The notes: generated from the letters alone by a model not told the origin. 21,023 nt of DNA from a virus (IMGVR_UViG_2778261176_000007:1-21023); one strand, 5' to 3'; shown: positions 1 to 13,805, numbered from the stretch's first letter. Numbers and translations: made by a program.

Positions 1-516
1 ATGAAATTTAAAAAATGTCTTCTGCCTGTGGCAATGTTAGCGTCATTCACTCTGGCAGGATGCCAGTCAAATGCTGATGATCATGCCGCCGATGTTTATC
101 AAACCGATCAACTGAATACCAAACAAGAAACTAAAACCGTTAATATTATTTCCATTCTTCCCGCAAAAGTTGCCGTAGACAACTCCCAAAATAAACGGAA
201 CGCACAAGCCTTCGGCGCGCTTATTGGTGCAGTCGCTGGCGGTGTAATCGGCCACAACGTGGGGTCTGGCAGCAATTCCGGAACGACGGCAGGTGCAGTT
301 GGCGGCGGAGCTGTTGGCGCGGCAGCGGGTTCTATGGTGAATGATAAAACCTTAGTGGAAGGTGTTTCTTTAACGTATAAGGAAGGCACCAAAGTGTATA
401 CCTCCACCCAGGTGGGTAAAGAGTGCCAGTTTACGACAGGTTTAGCCGTTGTTATTACCACGACGTATAACGAAACGCGTATTCAGCCAAATACGAAATG
501 TCCTGAAAAGAGCTAA
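1..516 (+). CDS. yfgH: Outer-membrane lipoprotein with glycine-zipper region (host gene)
   Basis: ATG at position 1. The N-terminus MKFKKCLLPVAMLASFTLAGC is a lipoprotein signal peptide with an LAGC lipobox. A Gly/Ala-rich stretch (GALIGAVAGGVIGHNVGSG...GAVGGGAVGAAAG) follows. Balanced GC composition. The yfgH name is from memory of the E. coli protein, not a search. Confidence 0.8.
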   Translation: MKFKKCLLPVAMLASFTLAGCQSNADDHAADVYQTDQLNTKQETKTVNIISILPAKVAVDNSQNKRNAQAFGALIGAVAGGVIGHNVGSGSNSGTTAGAVGGGAVGAAAGSMVNDKTLVEGVSLTYKEGTKVYTSTQVGKECQFTTGLAVVITTTYNETRIQPNTKCPEKS

Positions 517-531
517 TGATCAGGAGGAGTC

Positions 532-1071
532 ATGAAGAAAGTTTTTCTTTGCGCCATCTTAGCCTCCTTAAGCTATCCGGCTATCGCCTCATCATTGCAG
601 GATCAACTCTCGGCTGTCGCAGAAGCGGAACAGCAAGGTAAAAATGAAGAGCAAAGGCAGCATGACGAATGGGTCGCGGAGCGCAACAGGGAAATCCAGC
701 AAGAGAAGCAACGTCGCGCAAACGCCCAGGCCGCGGCTAATAAAAGAGCGGCAACGGCAGCGGCGAATAAGAAAGCTCGTCAGGATAAACTGGACGCCGA
801 AGCCACTGCGGACAAAAAACGCGATCAAAGTTATGAAGATGAGCTACGCAGCTTAGAGATTCAGAAACAAAAACTGGCGCTGGCGAAAGAAGAAGCCCGC
901 GTCAAGCGCGAAAACGAATTTATCGATCAGGAACTGAAGCACAAAGCTGCGCAAACCGATGTGGTGCAATCTGAAGCTGACGCAAACAGAAATATGACTG
1001 AAGGCGGTCGCGATCTGATGAAAAGCGTGGGCAAAGCAGAAGAGAACAAATCGGACAGCTGGTTTAACTAA
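532..1071 (+). CDS. yfgI: Secreted coiled-coil, charged protein (host gene; YfgI-like)
   Basis: A strong SD (AGGAGG) sits 6 nt upstream of the ATG. N-terminal signal peptide MKKVFLCAILASLSYPAIASS. Lys/Glu/Ala/Gln-rich low-complexity body. Lies 15 nt downstream of the preceding gene. Name assigned from memory of E. coli yfgH-yfgI synteny. Confidence 0.75.
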   Translation: MKKVFLCAILASLSYPAIASSLQDQLSAVAEAEQQGKNEEQRQHDEWVAERNREIQQEKQRRANAQAAANKRAATAAANKKARQDKLDAEATADKKRDQSYEDELRSLEIQKQKLALAKEEARVKRENEFIDQELKHKAAQTDVVQSEADANRNMTEGGRDLMKSVGKAEENKSDSWFN

Positions 1072-6177: not shown

Positions 6178-6194
6178 ATTACCTTTCGGGTAAT
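6178..6194. promoter_or_regulatory. 17-bp palindromic operator-like site ATTACC-TTTCG-GGTAAT (copy 1 of 5)
   Basis: Perfect 6-bp inverted arms with a 5-bp spacer. Located in the divergent region between the tailspike gene and the small Ant-C-like gene. Confidence 0.55.
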
Positions 6195-6232
6195 TTGCAA
6201 AACGTGCTGGATAGCAAACAAATTATTTGCTA

Positions 6233-6248
6233 CTGTATAAATATACAG
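6233..6248. promoter_or_regulatory. LexA (SOS) box CTGT-ATAAATAT-ACAG
   Basis: taCTGTATAAATATACAGtt differs from the LexA consensus CTGTATATATATACAG at one central position. It sits 22 nt upstream of the ATG at 6270 and contains a TATAAAT -10-like hexamer. Confidence 0.6.
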
Positions 6249-6269
6249 TTATTGCATGGAGAAGATAAG

Positions 6270-6527
6270 ATGCAGCAGTATCACTATCCACTGGAAGACG
6301 GATTTACCGAAAGGATTCACACGCCGGGAGGCGTCAGATCACTAGTGGAGGGATCGCACTTGATGAAATTACTCCGGGATCTCGATAAGGATGGATTTAA
6401 TGTCGATGGCCCACTTGCCGAACTGACTGCACTGATTAACTACGTCACCAGCTCACAGATGTCTATGCGGGATCTGCAAACACATCTCGACTATTGTGCC
6501 GAACAATTACGAAAACAAACCAGATAA
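6270..6527 (+). CDS. Small stand-alone protein homologous to the C-terminal domain of the two Bro-N antirepressors (candidate SOS-controlled antirepressor-like factor)
   Basis: 85 aa from the internal ATG (the track ORF starts at 6147 but would cover the operator palindrome and LexA box). GGAG SD 9 nt upstream. Alignable by eye to the Ant C-termini (LAELTALINYVTSSQMSMRDLQTHLDY versus AAELTTMFCYIVGVSKCLRDIQTHAEY). Confidence 0.5.
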   Translation: MQQYHYPLEDGFTERIHTPGGVRSLVEGSHLMKLLRDLDKDGFNVDGPLAELTALINYVTSSQMSMRDLQTHLDYCAEQLRKQTR

Positions 6528-6556
6528 GGTTTGCAATTACCAAGTGGAGTGCTTAT

Positions 6557-6575
6557 ATTTACCTTTGCGGTAAAT
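6557..6575. promoter_or_regulatory. Palindromic operator-like site ATTTACC-TTTGC-GGTAAAT (copy 2 of 5), at the start of the ant1 leader
   Basis: Perfect 7-bp arms. About 45 nt upstream of the conserved structured leader element. Confidence 0.55.
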
Positions 6576-6600
6576 TTACATCGCACTCCTCTTGTGCCAT

Positions 6601-6685
6601 AGTAATCGGGCACTGGCAAAATCCAGTGCCGGGATTGGCGTCCCGGATTACTAAAAGGCGCATTCACCGCGCAAGCGGTTTTTTT
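6601..6685 (+). ncRNA. Structured leader RNA element upstream of ant1 (c4-like antisense-RNA candidate): closing stem, two hairpins, and a hairpin plus U7 terminator
   Basis: Stem AGTAATC (6601-6607) pairs with GATTACT (6646-6652). Hairpin A is GGCACTGG-caaaat-CCAGTGCC (6609-6630). Hairpin B is CCGGGA-ttggcg-TCCCGG (6629-6646). Terminator-like ACCGC-gcaa-GCGGT followed by T7 (6666-6685). The stems are conserved in the inverted ant2 copy while the loops differ (compensatory pattern). Confidence 0.4.
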
Positions 6686-6842
6686 ATGCGTATAGCACGG
6701 CCACATTCGTATTATGGTGGGCTGTGTGGGGGCACCGAAAGGTGCGCCGGGTCCTTTTAGCCGGTTACGCCAACCCTGCACAGCTCACCACCAACCGATT
6801 GGCGTCGGTAGTGGTGATTAACCAGACTAAAAGGTAACCACT

Positions 6843-7538
6843 ATGACAGCTACAAAAAGCACGTCCATTTTTTCTTTCGAATCCCAAGCCGATATACGAG
6901 TAATCGTCATTAATGGTGAGCCATGGTTTATCGCTTCAGATGTTTGTCGGGCTATAGGCATAGCAAACCATCGAGATGCTGTTCGAAAACTTGATGATGA
7001 TGAGAAGGGCGTCGCTTCAACCGACACCCCTGGCGGTGAGCAAGAATCGATCATCATCTCCGAGTCAGGCCTCTACACACTGATCCTCCGCTGCCGCGAC
7101 GCAGTGACACCAGGCACTATCCCCTACCGCTTTCGTAAATGGGTTACAGGTGAGGTTCTTCCTCAGATCCGCCGCACCGGAAGCTACATTAAAAACTCGC
7201 TCCCGCAGGAAGAACGCATAAAGATGGTTGCCGACCAGGTAGCCAACGCCACGGCGTCAGCAGTAATGCAGGCGATGAAGATAGAGAACAAAACCTACAG
7301 CGCCCCGCTGAAGCCCGGCTACCGCAGTTTGATTCACTCGCCGTCTGGTGTTCTCGGCCTGACGGAGAACTCACTGCTGATGAATCTGCTGAACCAGTTA
7401 CAGGAAGACGGGCACGACGTATCGGGCGCGGCGGCGGAACTGACCACCATGTTCTGCTACATCGTCGGTGTGAGTAAATGCCTGCGTGATATCCAGACCC
7501 ACGCGGAATACATCAACGACAAGGCAGGGGTCTTCTGA
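6843..7538 (+). CDS. Antirepressor-like protein with Bro-N N-terminal domain (ant1)
   Basis: 231 aa. N-terminus IFSFESQADIRVIVINGEPWFIASDVCRAIGI...ESGLYTLILR is a Bro-N-type motif. AAAGGT SD before the ATG. The C-terminal half is nearly identical (about 95 percent nucleotide identity) to the inverted paralog at 8652-9344. Confidence 0.85.
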   Translation: MTATKSTSIFSFESQADIRVIVINGEPWFIASDVCRAIGIANHRDAVRKLDDDEKGVASTDTPGGEQESIIISESGLYTLILRCRDAVTPGTIPYRFRKWVTGEVLPQIRRTGSYIKNSLPQEERIKMVADQVANATASAVMQAMKIENKTYSAPLKPGYRSLIHSPSGVLGLTENSLLMNLLNQLQEDGHDVSGAAAELTTMFCYIVGVSKCLRDIQTHAEYINDKAGVF

Positions 7539-7547
7539 CAGAACGGC

Positions 7548-7570
7548 GGCACAGGGATGTGCCTTTAAAT
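7548..7570 (+). terminator. Putative terminator of ant1 (hairpin GGCACA-ggga-TGTGCC followed by TTTAAAT)
   Basis: 6-bp stem about 10 nt after the ant1 stop. The T-tract is interrupted, so this is weakly supported. Confidence 0.35.
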
Positions 7571-7604: not shown

Positions 7605-7619
7605 TTACCCCAAAGGTAA
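7605..7619. promoter_or_regulatory. Palindromic operator-like site TTACC-CCAAA-GGTAA (copy 3 of 5), upstream of the AT-rich two-gene cassette
   Basis: Perfect 5-bp arms with a 5-bp spacer, about 120 nt upstream of the ATG at 7737. Confidence 0.5.
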
Positions 7620-7736: not shown

Positions 7737-7955
7737 ATGTTTAAATTTGATATGCAACTCAACCAAAACTATGCCTCTTTTTACCATCCAGAAACTGGTA
7801 AAGCTGTTTTCGTTGACTCTTTCGATAATGAAGAATTTGATATCAGAATTGGGACCCTACGCCAAAGTAAGCATGTTGCTACTGTACGTGCATCCAATGA
7901 TGATGAATTAAATCAAAAAATAAGTGAGGCGACCTCCCGTTATCTATGTCTATAA
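7737..7955 (+). CDS. Hypothetical protein, 72 aa (first gene of AT-rich moron cassette)
   Basis: Strong SD GGGAGG 7 nt upstream of the ATG. AT-rich codon usage unlike the flanking genes. Its stop overlaps the start of the next ORF (ATG at 7946, TAA at 7953-7955). No recognisable domain. Confidence 0.55.
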   Translation: MFKFDMQLNQNYASFYHPETGKAVFVDSFDNEEFDIRIGTLRQSKHVATVRASNDDELNQKISEATSRYLCL

Positions 7956-8323
7956 CAGAACAACAACTCATTGATCTTGAGGATGAGATTAACGAGATCT
8001 TGCAAGAAGATGCGGCAAGAATTCACTTTTCATTTCACGCAGCATATGAACGCCTGAACGACGAGAGGAACAAACCGCCAATTACTCTTGCTGAGCTTGA
8101 AGATGTGTTTAAATCGTTTATATCTGCACATCTGCAGACTGTTTTGGATTTTGCTGAAGGTACAACTTTCACCATAAAGTGCAACAAAAGCGCCCTTCAT
8201 TTTCCTTGCGCCATTGTACACGAAAGAGAGTTTGGGAAAACGTGGGTTATCCAAAACGTCATTACAGCCATGAGGAAAGTGGGATTCAAGTCTAAAGATT
8301 CTATTATCCTCGAAGTTAATTAA
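7946..8323 (+). CDS. Hypothetical protein, 125 aa (second gene of AT-rich moron cassette)
   Basis: Translationally coupled to the 72-aa ORF. Acidic N-terminal half. Followed immediately by an intrinsic terminator. No recognisable domain. Confidence 0.6.
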   Translation: MSITEQQLIDLEDEINEILQEDAARIHFSFHAAYERLNDERNKPPITLAELEDVFKSFISAHLQTVLDFAEGTTFTIKCNKSALHFPCAIVHEREFGKTWVIQNVITAMRKVGFKSKDSIILEVN

Positions 8324-8344
8324 GCCCGCACTGAGGGCTTTTTT
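8323..8344 (+). terminator. Rho-independent terminator of the two-gene cassette
   Basis: Stem AGCCC / GGGCT with loop GCACTGA, followed by TTTTTT (8339-8344). Directly after the stop codon at 8321-8323. Confidence 0.7.
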
Positions 8345-8416
8345 ATGGACGAAACAAAAGTCAGTGCTACACTCATTGACGCCACATTGAGGTGGCTTAT
8401 AGATGGAAATTTCACA

Positions 8417-8578
8417 ATGAAAAAAGCATTTGCTGCACTGTTCGTTTTGTTGTCTCTGGTAGCTTCAACTCAGGCCTTTGCCGGTCGTTGTCAGCACGAC
8501 AGCGATACTGCCGCTGACGGCTCCCGCTGCGGTGGGCGTTCTGCGGACTCCCGCCCGGGCGGCGGTGGCATTCGTTAA
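8417..8578 (+). CDS. Small secreted Cys/Gly-rich peptide (about 53 aa), hypothetical
   Basis: Signal peptide MKKAFAALFVLLSLVASTQAFA then GRCQHDSDTAADGSRCGGRSADSRPGGGGIR. Weak SD. The upstream in-frame ATG at 8345 lies inside the preceding terminator T-tract, so 8417 is the more plausible start. Confidence 0.3.
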   Translation: MKKAFAALFVLLSLVASTQAFAGRCQHDSDTAADGSRCGGRSADSRPGGGGIR

Positions 8579-8600
8579 AAACAAGGCCGCGAAAGCGGCC
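8577..8600 (-). terminator. Rho-independent terminator of ant2 (minus strand)
   Basis: Hairpin GGCCGC-gaaa-GCGGCC (8585-8600) followed on the minus strand by TTGTTTTT. About 50 nt downstream of the ant2 stop. Confidence 0.5.
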
Positions 8601-8651
8601 TGTGACATGTCACGCTAGTTTCGTTTTGCACGTCCCTGTGCCGACGTTCTG

Positions 8652-9344
8652 TCAGAAGAACCCTGCCTTGTCGTTGATGTATTCCGCGTGCGTCTGGATA
8701 TCACGCAGGCATTTGCTCACACCGACGATGTAGCAGAACATGGTGGTCAGCTCCGCCGCCGCACCCGATACGTCGTGCCCGTCTTCCTGTAACTGGTTCA
8801 GCAGATTCATCAGCAGTGAGTTCTCCGTCAGGCCGAGAACACCAGACGGAGAATGAATCAGGCTGCGGTAGCCGGGCTTCAGCGGGGAGCTGTAGGTTTT
8901 GTTCTCTATCTTCATTGCCTGCATCACTGCTGATGCTGTGGCGTTGGCTACCTGGTCGGCAACCATCTTTATGCGTTCTTCCTGAGGGAGCGAGTTTTTA
9001 ATGTAACTTCCGGTGCGGCGGATCTGAGGAAGAACCTCACCTGTAACCCATTCAAGAAATCTGAATGCTCTCGTTCCCTCAGTCATTGCCTCTTTGCAAC
9101 GCAGAATAAGGATGTAGAGACCTGATTCTGAAACGATGGATAGTTCTTGTATTCCACCAGGGGTCTGTATTGAATACAGCCCCTTTTTGTTCCAGCCTTT
9201 TTTATCAAGTTTTCTCGCTTGTGTAACATCAATATTCAAAGCATTGCACACATCTTTGGTGACAAACCAAGGTTCTCCGTCAATCATGAACATACGGATC
9301 TGGCAGGATGACTCAAAGGAAAAGATGGAAGGTTTGGTATTCAT
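8652..9344 (-). CDS. Antirepressor-like protein with Bro-N N-terminal domain (ant2), inverted paralog of ant1
   Basis: 230 aa from the ATG at 9342-9344 (the track ORF starts 15 codons upstream at a TTG). AAAGGTGA SD. The Bro-N domain has diverged from ant1 while the C-terminal 130 aa differ at only 2 residues. Confidence 0.85.
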   Translation of the reverse strand: MNTKPSIFSFESSCQIRMFMIDGEPWFVTKDVCNALNIDVTQARKLDKKGWNKKGLYSIQTPGGIQELSIVSESGLYILILRCKEAMTEGTRAFRFLEWVTGEVLPQIRRTGSYIKNSLPQEERIKMVADQVANATASAVMQAMKIENKTYSSPLKPGYRSLIHSPSGVLGLTENSLLMNLLNQLQEDGHDVSGAAAELTTMFCYIVGVSKCLRDIQTHAEYINDKAGFF

Positions 9345-9498
9345 AGCGATCACCTTTGTAGTTAGGTTAATCACCACCGCTGAGACCAATCAGATGGTGG
9401 TGAACTGTGCAGAGTTGGTCTTACCGGCTACAAAGGAACCCGGCGCACCTTTCGGTGCCCCCACACAGCCCACCATAGAATAGGTGCGCTTTACACAT

Positions 9499-9584
9499 AA
9501 AAAAACCGCTTATGCGGCATATGTGCCTCTGTAGTAATCCGGGAGACCAATCCCGGCACTGGATTTTGCCAGTGCCTGATTACT
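9499..9584 (-). ncRNA. Structured leader RNA element upstream of ant2 (twin of 6601-6685), c4-like antisense-RNA candidate
   Basis: Same closing stem and two hairpins as the ant1 leader, with loop B changed from ttggcg to ttggtc. Terminator-like CCGC-ataa-GCGG followed by U7 on the minus strand (9499-9517). Confidence 0.4.
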
Positions 9585-9611
9585 ATGGCACAAGAGGAGT
9601 GCGTTGTAAAT

Positions 9612-9626
9612 TTACCTCAAAGGTAA
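9612..9626. promoter_or_regulatory. Palindromic operator-like site TTACC-TCAAA-GGTAA (copy 4 of 5), at the start of the ant2 leader
   Basis: Perfect 5-bp arms. Equivalent position to copy 2 in the inverted arm. Lies in the divergent region between ant2 and the 9774 gene. Confidence 0.5.
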
Positions 9627-9773
9627 TAATAGACGCAGGTGAATATCAAAATCAACCACATTTGGTTAAGGTGTGTAAAAGAGCCACCAGCGAGAAATTG
9701 TACCGCGATGTAAAATAACGAGAATCTGCTGGCTTACAACCAGCGATGTTTCAAATTTGTCACTACTATCAAC

Positions 9774-10172
9774 GTGCCATTCCACGGCGTAGAACTTTAT
9801 GTTGTCAATCACAACGGCGAACCGTACACCCCAATGAAACCTATCGTTGAGGGAATGGGGCTAGACTGGAAATCTCAACATAAGAAGATTTCTCAACGCT
9901 TCTCGAAGGGTATGGTGGAAATCACCATACCTTCTGCCGGTGGGGTGCAAGCCATGATTTGTATGGCTTTACGAAAATTGGCAGCTTGGTTGAACAGCAT
10001 CAGCCCTAACAAAGTCCGCCCTGAAATCCGCGATAAGGTAATCCAGTATCAGGAAGAGTGTGATGATGTGCTCTATGAGTACTGGACTAAAGGCCATGTG
10101 GTTAACCCGCGCAAAGCTAAAAAGGTGTTGCCGGGTAAAATCACTACTGAGCAACAGGAGGTATACACTTAA
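9774..10172 (+). CDS. Phage antirepressor-like protein (P22 AR N-terminal-like domain), hypothetical
   Basis: 132 aa. The motif LRKLAAWLNSISPNKVRPEIRDKVIQYQEECDDVLYEYW resembles antirepressor N-terminal domains as I recall them. The first in-frame start is a GTG with no clear SD, so the start is uncertain (an internal ATG lies 20 codons in). Confidence 0.5.
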   Translation: MPFHGVELYVVNHNGEPYTPMKPIVEGMGLDWKSQHKKISQRFSKGMVEITIPSAGGVQAMICMALRKLAAWLNSISPNKVRPEIRDKVIQYQEECDDVLYEYWTKGHVVNPRKAKKVLPGKITTEQQEVYT

Positions 10173-10196
10173 CACTTGATCACATTAGCACAAAAT

Positions 10197-10213
10197 ATTA
10201 CCTTTAAGGTAAT
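10197..10213. promoter_or_regulatory. Palindromic operator-like site ATTACC-TTTAA-GGTAAT (copy 5 of 5), immediately upstream of the membrane-anchored moron
   Basis: Perfect 6-bp arms. Ends 20 nt before the ATG at 10233, so it overlaps the expected promoter/RBS region. Confidence 0.55.
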
Positions 10214-10232
10214 GTTATTGTGAGGAAAAGCA

Positions 10233-10760
10233 ATGGAAGTTTTCTTAATCATCGTCGGCATCGTGATTATTAATTTTGTTTTTTTATTTATTGCAAAAAA
10301 ACAAAAAAGTAACGATATGCATGTTTCTACAACTGATGATCTTACCTTTGTAGAGCATGCACTGAATGTATCAGGATATAAACTCACTCCATACGGAGCT
10401 GGTGTATCACTCATGTCTTTAAGTAACGGTTTTTCAAAAGAAGAAACATTTTCACATATAGCTTTGATGGCTCTTTCTCAACACGCCAAAGTCGCAGGTA
10501 GTGACGCAATTGAGCTTAGTAAAGTTAGCATTCGTGCGATGTCGATAGCTGAAAACTTAACTAAATTATTCAGGAAAGGTCTTATTCGATCAGAAATATA
10601 TAAAAATGATTTGAATGCTATCATGGCTGTCAGCACAATTAATGAAAACCAAGAGGATTGGATTTCCATAGTTCTGGAAAGCAATAGCACATCTAACAAG
10701 GATACTATTGCTTTGCCGATAAGTGCAGAAGCTTCTTTAGAAGCCATAAACAGCCATTGA
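10233..10760 (+). CDS. Membrane-anchored hypothetical protein (moron; candidate superinfection-exclusion or abortive-infection factor)
   Basis: 175 aa. N-terminal TM helix (VFLIIVGIVIINFVFLFIA) followed by KKQK, then a soluble domain. GAGG SD 7 nt upstream. Strongly AT-rich coding sequence. Convergent with the structural operon. Confidence 0.65.
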   Translation: MEVFLIIVGIVIINFVFLFIAKKQKSNDMHVSTTDDLTFVEHALNVSGYKLTPYGAGVSLMSLSNGFSKEETFSHIALMALSQHAKVAGSDAIELSKVSIRAMSIAENLTKLFRKGLIRSEIYKNDLNAIMAVSTINENQEDWISIVLESNSTSNKDTIALPISAEASLEAINSH

Positions 10761-10781
10761 AAGAACTCCAATAAATATTGA

Positions 10782-13700
10782 TTAACGCATCACCGGATCC
10801 ACTTGGTTTATTAGTGGCGCAATCCAGAACAGGTTATTGCCGGGTATCAGGGTTCGGACATTATGCACAATACGATCACCGGCATCACCATTCAACACTC
10901 CTGCGGTCACATCAATGATGCTATCCGCAAGACCAAATGACGGTCCGAATAGAGATCCTACGAATCCACGACTGGCATACCTAGACTGTGTGCCAGTGCC
11001 AAATAAAGCCCCCAGCCCAACAGCACCACCAGTAGCCTTTTCAGCCATGTTGTTATATTCCATCAATGGCCCAAGAATACCGGATCTATCTATACCCTCA
11101 AGCACCAGCTTCTCTGGTGACCAGTCAACATTTTTCCCTTTCGATGCTTCTTTAAGCGCATAGACCAGTGAGCCAAGAGCAATCTGAAATGCAGTGCCAT
11201 AATAAAATTGCGCAGTTCCTTCCTGTAACCCACCAAGTAGCGCACGGTTGTATGAAGCCGTTGTGAATGATTTAAACTGAAATATCGTTCGCCCCATTGG
11301 AGTACTCGCCCATAAAGGTGTGTCACCAATACCGGGGGTGATGATAGTGTTATTAACGTCTTTCAGAACCGCTGACTGGAATACTCCGGCAACGTACTGA
11401 TCGTCCCATTTATCAAAGTTACCAATGTGCCATCCATCAATTACCTCACCATGTTTCTCGAACTCACTGCGAATACGCGCAGCCATATTGTCGTTGATAC
11501 CGAGTTTTGCCATGCGACGTGCAGAAAACGCACCAGACAAAATACCGTCTGACGTGAGCATTCCGTTCATGGATTTGTTTATGTCATTAAATCGATCCAT
11601 GAGTGTCAGCTTGCCGAAGGCATCAGTAATTCGCTCCATTCCTGCTTCGACTGCTGTTGTCCTGGAAGAACTGTCAACAAGATCACCAATTGCACGAGAA
11701 CGTGAATGTAGTACAGTTTCCAATCCAATCCCCATCTTCAACATCTCTTCTTTGCTGGCCTTAAATGCCGGTGATTGGGATATCTGAGAAGCATAGCCTT
11801 TCATGGAGTTACGGAAACCATTAACCATAACCCCTCTGGCCAGATCTGGAATAGCTGATACTGTCATTCCACCGAGTTTGGTCGTGAAGTTCACATCCCG
11901 CAGAAAAGCGCCAGCACGAACAAAAAACGAAGACGGGTCATCAGGCATACCATATGTACCAACAAGACGATCGCGTAATGCTGTTATGTCTCTGAGATCA
12001 TTTGCTCTTGATTTTGAAAGTCTGGACTGTTCTTTCCGTAATTCCTTTTCGTACTTTCGCATTAATGAATCGAGTTTACCCTGAGGAACAACTTCACCAT
12101 TGCTCTCATAACGTGCTTTCAGATTTGCCACACTTTCGTCATATTTCGCCTTTATTTTTTCAGGCACTTCCCGTAACAGACTGTCATATTCGTCCTCAAT
12201 TAATTGCAGACGCTCTGTCATAGTTCGTTTGCCAAATGTTCTCGTCAACTCAATTTCTGCTGCCGCTTCACGGATATGACGTTGTAGAACGTAATTCACA
12301 TCACTTTCGAGATAATCCCTGATAAGACTATCAGGCACATTTAATGTTCTTTCTTTCGTACTACCTGCAGCTTTTACAGAAAATACGCTGACAAAATCCT
12401 GTGGAACCTTAGCACCAGTAATTTTATTAATTACGATATCCGCTGCAATTTCAGCATCCTCAGGATCCAGTGTTTTATTGCCTCTCGACCACCAGTCAAC
12501 CAAAATACGTCGAAATTTATCGCGTTCACTGATTATTTTTCCAACTTTATATATACGTGGGAAATAGCTTGCCTGGCCTAATGCTTTCAGTCCTTCATCT
12601 GGCGGCAATAAACCAAGCTTTTGCATTTCAACCTTCACCCGATTTAATACAGTTCGCATCGCCTGCGCCGTTTCCTGAACAACAGGATTAGCATGCACAT
12701 CACCGCTTCGCATAGCATTCCCAACCTGCTGACGAAATGAATCAAAACTCATGTCACCACCATCAGCTTTATACTTTGCGTATGCCTGTTTATTTCCGAC
12801 AACAACAGCAGCTTCTTCACGCTGCCATCCACGTGTACGGGTTTCTACAGCTACCGGTGTTTCAATCCCCCTTTCATTTCCTTTAAGGGTGAAATTATTT
12901 TCGGCTAACTCCAGCGTTGTTTTTCGCACTGTCTTGGACGGAGACTCCATTAACCTTGTCAAAGGAGTAAGATAGCTCCCTGCTTTCCATGCAGCCTTTC
13001 CAACCACCCCACCGGAAACAGGGGTTAAATCATCCAGAGTCGCTGTATCAATTTTCATAGCACCAACACTACCACCATCAGAAAGCGAAGCGGCAGCCCT
13101 GTCAGTCGCTGATGTAATGCTCATATTATCAAGAGCATCAGCAACCTCACGCGTGGCTGCAGCCCGGACGGATGGCGAAAGCGCAACACCAGCACTGGCA
13201 AACACGCCGCTCATCATCGCACCCGCTGCAACGTGAGCGGCACTTTCACCCCATGAGCGTGTTATTTGCTGATTATTCAGCACAACCTCGCTTAATGCTG
13301 TACCGGCTGCACCAATCGCAATCTGTGAGCCAATACGCGCCAGTGCCCCTCCTTGAGCACCTGGGATAAACATTGACGCAACAGTAACCGGGTCAAAAAG
13401 CATCGCTGTTGCACTGGCAATTCCACCAGCTAAGCCTGCTTCAGAGATAAAACGCCGATCTTCATTTTCATCATCTATCTGCTGCTTAATCCACGCCGTT
13501 TCCTCTGGCGATCGGGAATCTGCAAATTTCGCCCCCCAGTATTCATAACCGTGCAACTCATTTTTATCAGCATATGGGTTATAACCCTCGACCGGTTCAA
13601 ACTGTCTGGCAGGACGGAAAAAACCAGCCAGAATATTGTTCTGTCGTATTGCTGCGGCAAGCAATGAAGGCTCTTTGGGACGAGGTTCAGGGTTCTTACC

Positions 13701-13805
13701 TTCTGGCGGATGCACATCAAAACTCTGTTCATCAGGTTCAGGAATGGCGAGACCAGCAGAAATAAATCCGTTATTGTTTGATTCAGATACAGGATAGAAC
13801 GGCAT
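10782..13805 (-). CDS. Internal virion / DNA-ejection protein (T7 gp16-position, 1007 aa)
   Basis: Last gene of the structural operon. Its start overlaps the stop of the upstream 902-aa gene at 13805. Gly/Ala-rich segments and long coiled-coil-like central region. Assigned by size and synteny with the T7-like gp11-gp16 order. Confidence 0.7.
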   Translation of the reverse strand: MPFYPVSESNNNGFISAGLAIPEPDEQSFDVHPPEGKNPEPRPKEPSLLAAAIRQNNILAGFFRPARQFEPVEGYNPYADKNELHGYEYWGAKFADSRSPEETAWIKQQIDDENEDRRFISEAGLAGGIASATAMLFDPVTVASMFIPGAQGGALARIGSQIAIGAAGTALSEVVLNNQQITRSWGESAAHVAAGAMMSGVFASAGVALSPSVRAAATREVADALDNMSITSATDRAAASLSDGGSVGAMKIDTATLDDLTPVSGGVVGKAAWKAGSYLTPLTRLMESPSKTVRKTTLELAENNFTLKGNERGIETPVAVETRTRGWQREEAAVVVGNKQAYAKYKADGGDMSFDSFRQQVGNAMRSGDVHANPVVQETAQAMRTVLNRVKVEMQKLGLLPPDEGLKALGQASYFPRIYKVGKIISERDKFRRILVDWWSRGNKTLDPEDAEIAADIVINKITGAKVPQDFVSVFSVKAAGSTKERTLNVPDSLIRDYLESDVNYVLQRHIREAAAEIELTRTFGKRTMTERLQLIEDEYDSLLREVPEKIKAKYDESVANLKARYESNGEVVPQGKLDSLMRKYEKELRKEQSRLSKSRANDLRDITALRDRLVGTYGMPDDPSSFFVRAGAFLRDVNFTTKLGGMTVSAIPDLARGVMVNGFRNSMKGYASQISQSPAFKASKEEMLKMGIGLETVLHSRSRAIGDLVDSSSRTTAVEAGMERITDAFGKLTLMDRFNDINKSMNGMLTSDGILSGAFSARRMAKLGINDNMAARIRSEFEKHGEVIDGWHIGNFDKWDDQYVAGVFQSAVLKDVNNTIITPGIGDTPLWASTPMGRTIFQFKSFTTASYNRALLGGLQEGTAQFYYGTAFQIALGSLVYALKEASKGKNVDWSPEKLVLEGIDRSGILGPLMEYNNMAEKATGGAVGLGALFGTGTQSRYASRGFVGSLFGPSFGLADSIIDVTAGVLNGDAGDRIVHNVRTLIPGNNLFWIAPLINQVDPVMR

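Follow-up and report, generated by a model that had tools for sequence, protein, structure and literature searches.

A membrane-anchored accessory gene with a cI/cro-type operator in the sieA-like cargo slot of a TL-2011b-type temperate podophage, and its possible role in phage interference

Temperate phages keep genes for competition with other phages in slots beside their ejection-protein genes and beside cI, and very few of these genes have a known mechanism. T4 Imm is an early-expressed exclusion protein of the inner membrane, and in phage lambda rexAB occupies the region downstream of cI. The region directly downstream of cI is also where BstA sits in phage BTP1 (PMC8585504). P22-like prophages carry SieA (superinfection exclusion A), which spans the membrane with at least three helices and bears the motif FxRYPxEAxxFNK (Leavitt et al. 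2024, PMC10883804). Here we describe a gene for a protein of 175 amino acids in a viral DNA stretch of 21,023 nucleotides (IMGVR_UViG_2778261176_000007:1-21023; the whole stretch is called the window below), which an earlier note on this DNA had read as a lysogen-expressed membrane moron at the sieA position. That position was given correctly: in P22, sieA and gene 16 converge, with mnt/arc/ant on the other side of sieA, and in the window the open reading frame (ORF) in question lies between the last ejection-protein gene and the tailspike/immunity I (immI) region. The best explanation that we can offer for its function, at a probability of roughly 35%, is that in derepressed cells the product would interfere with the DNA entry of competing phages or with the step that immediately follows it.

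The elements that matter for this reading are listed here, with coordinates counted from the first letter of the window.

10169-10196, plus strand: sigma-70-type promoter from a consensus scan, its activity predicted (-35 TTAACA at 10169-10174, a 16-nucleotide spacer, -10 CAAAAT at 10191-10196)
10198-10212, no strand: operator palindrome TTACCTTTAAGGTAA (TTACC-N5-GGTAA), beginning 1 nucleotide past the -10 hexamer
10222-10226, plus strand: Shine-Dalgarno sequence GAGGA, 6 nucleotides 5' of the ATG and identical across all copies of the cassette
10233-10760, plus strand: coding sequence with an ATG start, 175 amino acids, 19.2 kDa, isoelectric point 5.5, a member of phrog_21690, an unnamed domain family
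10239-10295, plus strand: N-terminal membrane helix, residues 3-21, Kyte-Doolittle mean 3.18, predicted to be a reverse signal anchor (N terminus out, C terminus in)
10320-10724, plus strand: all-helical soluble domain of about 120-135 amino acids, residues about 30-164, with 123 cluster representatives at E<=1e-3

The control of the gene can be read from the operator. The ORF had been credited with an operator palindrome of its own, and the palindrome is real, with TTACC-N5-GGTAA found at five sites in the window against 0.01 expected, but it is not specific to this ORF: it is the O_R/O_L motif of cI/cro in related prophages. All five sites fall within the accessory region at 6.1-10.3 kb, and the four sister sites are the following.

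6179-6193, no strand: TTACCTTTCGGGTAA, 5' of a LexA box and a gene of 85 codons
6559-6573, no strand: TTACCTTTGCGGTAA, at the rightward antirepressor promoter
7605-7619, no strand: TTACCCCAAAGGTAA, between a BRO-N gene and the ORF at 7946-8323
9612-9626, no strand: TTACCTCAAAGGTAA, at the leftward antirepressor promoter

The cI/cro region itself lies outside the window, which the complete E. coli genomes cover to 76% at best, and was read instead in the relatives MS8345, TUM9803 and TL-2011b. In MS8345, whose copy of the ORF is 99.8% identical, three tandem operator sites lie between a cro-like gene and the gene for a 194-amino-acid helix-turn-helix (HTH) protein, and two further sites flank a TTGACA promoter just 3' of the repressor gene; judged from the sequence, this is the lambdoid O_R / O_L-P_L layout. 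The 194-amino-acid repressor of the related prophages has two HTH-type Pfam matches and no match to a peptidase domain. TUM9803, the closest complete relative of the window, carries the ORF, has near-identical CI and Cro proteins and shows the same operator layout, with 16 operator sites against 0.8 expected. The cI/cro operator arrangement is the same again in phage TL-2011b, which has extra sites before its terminase and head operons.

The placement of the site is as informative as its letters. The operator begins either with the final base of the -10 hexamer or one base past it, and this holds for P_L, for the two antirepressor promoters and for the promoter of the ORF, which carries a perfect TTACC-N5-GGTAA site in the O_L/P_L geometry. 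Between the two alleles of the gene the -10 hexamer and the operator are unchanged and the spacer has two substitutions; the promoter can alternatively be read as TTAACA-18-AAATAT, ending at 10198. The simplest reading of this geometry is that the ORF is part of the regulon of the prophage repressor. Since the cI/cro-type operator adjoins the -10 hexamer just as it does at P_L, the stable lysogen probably keeps the gene silent, and derepression would turn it on along with the antirepressor genes.

The motif is frequent throughout the related prophages TUM9803 (L020), MS8345 (L013/L001) and TL-2011b (L032), each of which has 14-16 TTACC-N5-GGTAA sites against about 1 expected. Sites in these prophages also follow the replication genes and immediately precede the small terminase gene, others precede the portal/head operon, and one repressor may directly hold down nearly every transcription unit of TL-2011b-type phages.

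Most of what the earlier note had said of the gene and its product held up. The ORF of 175 amino acids runs from an ATG at 10233 to 10760 on the plus strand; the start of 10197 given at the time takes in the palindrome (10198-10212) and the Shine-Dalgarno sequence (10222-10226). It is AT-rich as described, at 35.2% GC where the window as a whole has 46.4% and each of the adjoining genes 46-47%. The protein has a single hydrophobic segment by hydropathy scan, at residues 3-21, and no second one, and no recognisable motif in the sense of named families: Pfam, NCBIfam and PADLOC are empty for it, and phrog_21690 ("unknown function") is its sole match.

Several observations bear on whether the gene is real. 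Its two alleles are 93% identical, with 13 synonymous and 12 non-synonymous changes and a ratio of non-synonymous to synonymous substitution rates (dN/dS) of 0.24, and 9/9 compared copies are intact (the window and eight loci: six of the P0003 allele, L001 and L012). Homologues down to 30% identity, the dN/dS of 0.24 and an AlphaFold2 model with a mean predicted local distance difference test (pLDDT) score of 94.2 together make the ORF, on sequence and model grounds, a real gene. It is also a rare one, complete in 6/5,426 complete Escherichia coli genomes and absent from TL-2011b and from all 50,697 phage records searched. Like a moron in the Juhala/Hendrix sense it has deviant GC content and a promoter of its own (by consensus match) and is missing from closely related genomes; no terminator of its own was seen on either strand at 10740-10800. 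The gene is a dispensable cassette that is exchanged horizontally, and in kind it is ordinary: an accessory gene that a prophage carries in a cargo slot already known.

The helix of the protein is preceded by "ME", with no Lys or Arg, and followed by "KKQK...", and in each of the 11 membrane-anchored relatives 0-1 Lys/Arg precede the helix and 3-6 follow it. From this Lys/Arg distribution and the positive-inside rule, the C terminus is predicted to be inside, so that the soluble domain would sit on the cytoplasmic and not the periplasmic face of the inner membrane. A cytoplasmic location is also suggested by the occurrence of the domain without a signal sequence or fused to winged HTH (wHTH)-like domains. 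Within the domain, the conserved motif reads GY.LT.YG.GV.L.SL..G(Y/F)S..ET.SH.A ... ND..A ... W...VL.. AlphaFold2 on a 6-sequence alignment gave an unusable model (pLDDT 55), and a 73-sequence alignment was used, with which the pLDDT of 94.2 was reached at a predicted TM (pTM) score of 0.80; the model shows a long helix at the N terminus and, after it, a compact domain of helices that a two-stranded bridge closes.

Pfam holds models for SieB, T4 Imm and YebO/HK97 gp15. The ORF has no Pfam match at E<=0.1 and none in NCBIfam, PADLOC or the PDB sequences, and its 73 relatives, searched against the same four collections, gave no consistent family match. The match to phrog_21690 (PHROGs v4) is full-length (positions 1-175 of 175, E 7.5e-104), and 73/73 relatives tested match it as well. 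PHROGs gives no function or description for this family; the present analysis adds its wider spread, which extends to soluble and fused forms outside phages. As modelled, the domain family is new, unnamed, confidently folded and without structural neighbours.

A word-indexed search gave 9 relatives, and an exhaustive HMMER search with the family profile gave 123 cluster representatives, 73 of them at E<=1e-10. The domain occurs free (130-150 amino acids with no hydrophobic segment), membrane-anchored, or at the C terminus of fusions, the latter being proteins of about 250 amino acids with a wHTH-like N-terminal domain and proteins of about 310 amino acids with other N-terminal domains. The 93%-identical allele always lies between the ant remnant and the gene for a 1007-amino-acid internal virion protein, while the surrounding tailspikes and other accessory genes vary. 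In another prophage of like kind, the homologue P0016 (L015; 37-38% identity across alignments) follows an ORF6N antirepressor gene and faces a gene for an internal virion protein of 982 amino acids. P0030 (L025; 30% identity) lies between an antirepressor gene and the gene for an 823-amino-acid virion protein, with an ORF of 54 codons intervening and hairpin terminators on both sides; terminator hairpins likewise flank the homologue in L015. Judged from these loci, the homologues at 30-38% identity keep the order antirepressor, gene and convergent internal virion gene in two other podophage lineages. A further homologue, P0015 (31% identity), lies directly 3' of cI, after a terminator-like hairpin and before a C4-type antirepressor leader.

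Other members stand apart from such settings. A 47%-identical homologue (L003 10001-13650; L021 7956-8531) adjoins a TonB-dependent receptor gene in a chromosomal islet, and the homologue on the P0009 contig is about 1.5 kb from P4-satellite-like genes (a 267-amino-acid ORF, then Ogr_Delta and Psu). A profile search of genome contigs with a narrow alignment gave one locus. Among the distant homologues, one is in an AlpA/RES-Xre island and one on a contig with a relaxase and ParA; the neighbours at these loci are unrelated to one another, and no partner gene is common to the loci of the distant homologues. The persistence of homologues outside phages is in keeping with a product that the cell tolerates or benefits from.

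The cassette also comes apart at its 5' end. A 77-bp stretch at 10169-10245, which comprises the promoter, the operator, the Shine-Dalgarno sequence and the first four codons, is conserved at about 91% in 133 E. coli genomes, only six of which carry the ORF. In the two other carriers that were opened (118UI, L002 6065-6793, plus strand; and a second copy in MS8345, L001 7689-8417, minus strand), this 5' module drives a protein of 242 amino acids that starts with "MEVF" and has a similar N-terminal membrane anchor and a cysteine-rich, zinc-ribbon-like cytoplasmic part, with two CxxC...CxxC zinc-ribbon-like repeats in its C-terminal part. The identity between the ORF and the other gene behind the 5' module falls off sharply past codon 4. 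As the sequences read, the module of promoter, operator and anchor is shared and the cytoplasmic domains are swappable. The annotation of TL-2011b has, at the corresponding place, a 1089-nucleotide feature called "similar to hypothetical protein".

What occupies the slot in TL-2011b is gp39 (YP_007001990.1), a protein of 187 amino acids encoded at 32% GC in the same orientation and with an N-terminal membrane helix. No TTACC-N5-GGTAA site lies near the gp39 gene, and homology of its product to the ORF was rejected (hhalign probability 0.1%). The slot is a cargo site, which in TL-2011b holds a non-homologous gene.

Homology to SieA was likewise rejected, with a BLASTP E value of 0.21 and a probability of 0.1% in hhalign of the family profile against SieA. 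The motif FxRYPxEAxxFNK, which in P22 SieA reads FGRYPGEANGFNK, is missing from the ORF, the hydropathy scan gives one hydrophobic segment against four in P22 SieA, and the structural genes around the ORF are TL-2011b-like (96%) and not of the Lederbergvirus type. Aligned with hhalign, the family profile gave probabilities below 0.3% for P22 Ant, which stood in for the C-terminal half missing from the adjoining truncated ant, for the 85-amino-acid antirepressor-like protein and for the 242-amino-acid zinc-ribbon protein.

The mechanism that we propose treats the feature as an exchangeable cassette of promoter, operator, ribosome-binding site and gene in the immI-like region of a TL-2011b-type temperate podophage. 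The helix would insert with its N terminus out and its C terminus in, which would leave the domain tethered to the inner membrane on the cytoplasmic side. The CI repressor of the prophage, and later Cro, would occupy the operator and keep the gene off in the stable lysogen, and induction or infection would switch it on along with the antirepressor genes. The tethered domain would then interfere, at the inner membrane face, with the DNA entry of competing phages or with the next step, the inner-membrane or cytoplasmic end of T7-type ejection-protein channels being a plausible target. Its effect would resemble that of SieA and its timing that of T4 Imm.

Several points weigh against this proposal. 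Both the regulation and the exclusion function are deduced from sequence, and nothing ties the domain physically to ejection proteins. The pairing of operator with repressor is deduced from relatives, the phage's own cI/cro region lying beyond the ends of the window, and the lone operator at the ORF may be occupied only in part. A terminator downstream of the ORF was sought in the window and none was found. The structure-based search with the model returned no specific structural neighbour, and neither it nor the sequence searches give a functional hint. Many members of the family are neither membrane-anchored nor phage-borne, and the biochemistry of the domain may be unrelated to DNA entry.

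Nearly as likely as interference with competing phages, and possible in its own right, is an early host-directed or counter-defence role after the inactivation of CI, in which the tethered domain would bind a host protein for the sake of lytic growth or tune the lysis-lysogeny decision. Candidate targets would be the division or envelope machinery, a protease such as FtsH or a defence protein, by a logic like that of lambda Kil/CIII and P1 Icd. This would account well for the control by a CI-type operator and for the co-regulation with, and position beside, antirepressor modules in all four phage contexts, and tight repression is what one expects for products that are harmful or useless in lysogens. 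The predicted cytoplasmic domain and the wHTH-like regulatory fusions in other bacteria also agree with it. It accounts less well for the stand-alone homologues that have their own promoters and no phage repressor nearby and that persist in chromosomes, islands and plasmid-like contigs, which would be unexpected for a toxic takeover factor. The gene is dispensable besides, being missing from TL-2011b and almost all relatives, and it matches no known anti-defence or Kil-type family.

Lower in our ranking, and on balance unlikely, is the interpretation of the earlier note itself, namely a constitutive moron that is expressed in the lysogen and acts as a functional analogue of SieA by blocking the DNA entry of superinfecting phages. 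The ORF matches sieA in position and orientation, in AT-richness and in having a small inner-membrane product; in TL-2011b the slot holds another membrane-anchored cargo without a CI-type operator. Terminators flank the L015 and L025 homologues in the manner of classical morons, and the chromosomal homologues stand alone. Expression in the lysogen, which the analogy with sieA requires, is argued against by the operator at the ORF promoter, a perfect copy of the cI/cro operator abutting the -10 hexamer as at P_L. Homology to SieA is absent, the number of helices differs, and no terminator was found at the ORF.

To some other explanation, one that we have not conceived, we would leave about a tenth. 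A conventional role of the product in the structural module, as a virion, morphogenesis or DNA-ejection accessory protein, is highly improbable: the gene does adjoin the last internal virion gene in three phage lineages, but it lies on the strand opposite to the structural operon with an early-type promoter and operator of its own, it is missing from TL-2011b despite neighbouring virion genes that are 96% identical, and it is found beside cI in another lineage and, as homologues, outside phages. Least credible of all is a chance ORF or decaying remnant without function, a thought invited by the truncated ant pseudogene next door and the highly mosaic region and countered by full-length homologues to 30% identity, the dN/dS of 0.24, the good Shine-Dalgarno sequence, the pLDDT of 94 and the 9/9 intact copies.

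A wider version of the interference proposal is more doubtful than the proposal itself. The helical domain, whether free, fused to a wHTH or tethered, would be the working part of an undescribed module for phage interference or host manipulation, and the tethered form of TL-2011b-type phages would be a repressor-controlled exclusion factor that acts in derepressed cells only and disables T7-type ejection-protein channels from the cytoplasmic side. If true, both the protein family and its way of acting in superinfection exclusion would be new.

The surroundings of the gene correct one part of the earlier picture and sustain others. The phage had been called P22-like, which does not stand, the structural module being 96% identical to that of Escherichia phage TL-2011b and including a core protein of the T7 gp14 family; by its sequence it is a TL-2011b-type temperate podophage with T7-type core proteins. 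The ORF does lie convergent to the last internal virion gene, with the stop codons 21 nucleotides apart, and the antirepressor region is on its other side as stated, with P22_AR_N and Bro-N genes. The two immediate neighbours are these.

9774-10172, plus strand: truncated antirepressor gene, P22_AR_N domain only (Pfam P22_AR_N 5e-44), 132 amino acids, ending where the ORF cassette starts
10782-13805, minus strand: gene for the last internal virion (ejection-type) protein, 1007 amino acids, phrog_342 "internal virion protein" at 1.9e-207, 96% identical to TL-2011b gp38

The 1007-amino-acid protein gene follows the other core genes, which encode a protein with an SLT domain (902 amino acids) and the T7 gp14-family protein, and in sister prophages the Prokaryotic Genome Annotation Pipeline (PGAP) calls a Bbp16-type cement protein and an epsilon15-type "capsid staple". 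Between the stop codons of the ORF and the convergent gene (10760-10782) neither strand has a recognisable terminator, and antisense run-through of the two genes could make early and late expression mutually exclusive. The truncated antirepressor is 95.5% identical to the 5' part of CUS-3 ant, the similarity ending at about 10159, and PGAP calls it a pseudogene without a C terminus. The tailspike lies beyond the antirepressor region, on the far side from the internal virion gene.

The antirepressor region has its own features of note. Two inverted leaders with isrK and C4 antisense RNA are present at 6610-6795 (plus) and 9393-9575 (minus) (Rfam RF01394 75-78 bits, RF01695 79 bits), each between an operator-bearing promoter and a BRO-N antirepressor gene (6843-7538, plus; 8652-9389, minus), and these leaders imply antirepressor control of the P1/P7 immI kind and not of the P22 arc/mnt kind. 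An inverted duplication, 7005-7562 against 8628-9185 (558 nucleotides, 88% identity) with further arms at 6554-6832 against 9356-9631, covers the entire cassette of promoter, leader and BRO-N gene and brackets the ORFs at 7946-8323 and 8345-8578. The latter, a small ORF on the plus strand, has an internal signal-peptide-like stretch MKKAFAALFVLLSLVASTQAFA and a tail rich in Gly, Ser and Arg; with terminator-like hairpins on either side, at 8322-8340 and 8584-8601, it may form a further cassette of its own. Just 5' of the 85-codon gene at 6270-6527 (plus), whose antirepressor-like product matches the C-terminal part of BRO-N antirepressors (phrog_450, phrog_15539), a near-perfect LexA box, TACTGTATAAATATACAGT, lies at 6231-6249. 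Induction probably runs via a small, SOS-controlled antirepressor. In the gp40 region of TL-2011b (L005 7870-8331), the stretch 5' of and into gp40 reads "...KRSMNAEIVQRL" and is Arc/Mnt ribbon-helix-helix-like; gp40 is perhaps a repressor of the Mnt kind whose start was placed wrongly or whose gene has a frameshift.

At the far end of the window, beyond the lysis cassette, positions 1-516 (plus) encode a 171-amino-acid glycine-zipper/TraT-like protein, with Rick_17kDa_Anti above the Pfam cut-off and TraT just below it, and positions 532-1071 (plus) a DUF5384 protein; both are possible lysogenic-conversion genes. No tRNA was found in the window.

The value of the gene lies in the uncharacterised family that it offers, with a confident fold and no structural neighbour, and in the clear prediction that expression from an "exclusion slot" is under the prophage repressor and not constitutive. 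The unrelated membrane-anchored cargo in the slot of sister phages and the same cassette driving a different cytoplasmic domain form a natural comparison set. Should the gene exclude phages with T7-type internal core proteins, it would give a handle on how their channel crosses the inner membrane; should it do nothing, it would be merely another rare prophage hypothetical protein.

Set against the described systems, the gene shares with P22 sieA a slot right past the last ejection-protein gene in the direction of immI, an orientation that converges on that gene, the AT-richness (33.7% GC for sieA, 35.2% for the ORF) and the size (164 against 175 amino acids). Both products are inner-membrane proteins with a conserved part that is predicted to face the cytoplasm. 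Unlike SieA, with its 3-4 membrane helices, the ORF protein has one helix and a globular helical domain, and unlike sieA the ORF has a promoter that bears the operator motif seen at cI/cro of related prophages. Like morons of the HK97 gene 15 type (PMC3594210) it is a self-standing unit that brings its own promoter and deviates in GC content, it has a small inner-membrane product, and it is missing from close relatives of the phage; it differs from classical morons in having no terminator and in an operator that suggests no expression from the repressed prophage, and from the absence of matches of the ORF in Pfam-A we read no homology to YebO/gp15. In proposed timing and place it is like T4 Imm, as part of the early lytic programme, at the inner membrane and directed against incoming DNA, but homology to Imm is absent, with no match in Pfam-A, its architecture is another, and the phage here is temperate. 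Its 31%-identical homologue P0015 shares the cI-proximal position with BstA of BTP1, although no KilA-N or Rex homology is seen, and a terminator-like hairpin separates cI from the gene at that locus, so that co-transcription with cI is not evident. On the sequence evidence, this is a gene that recurs in the two accessory slots in which P22-like phages keep their exclusion and abortive-infection genes.

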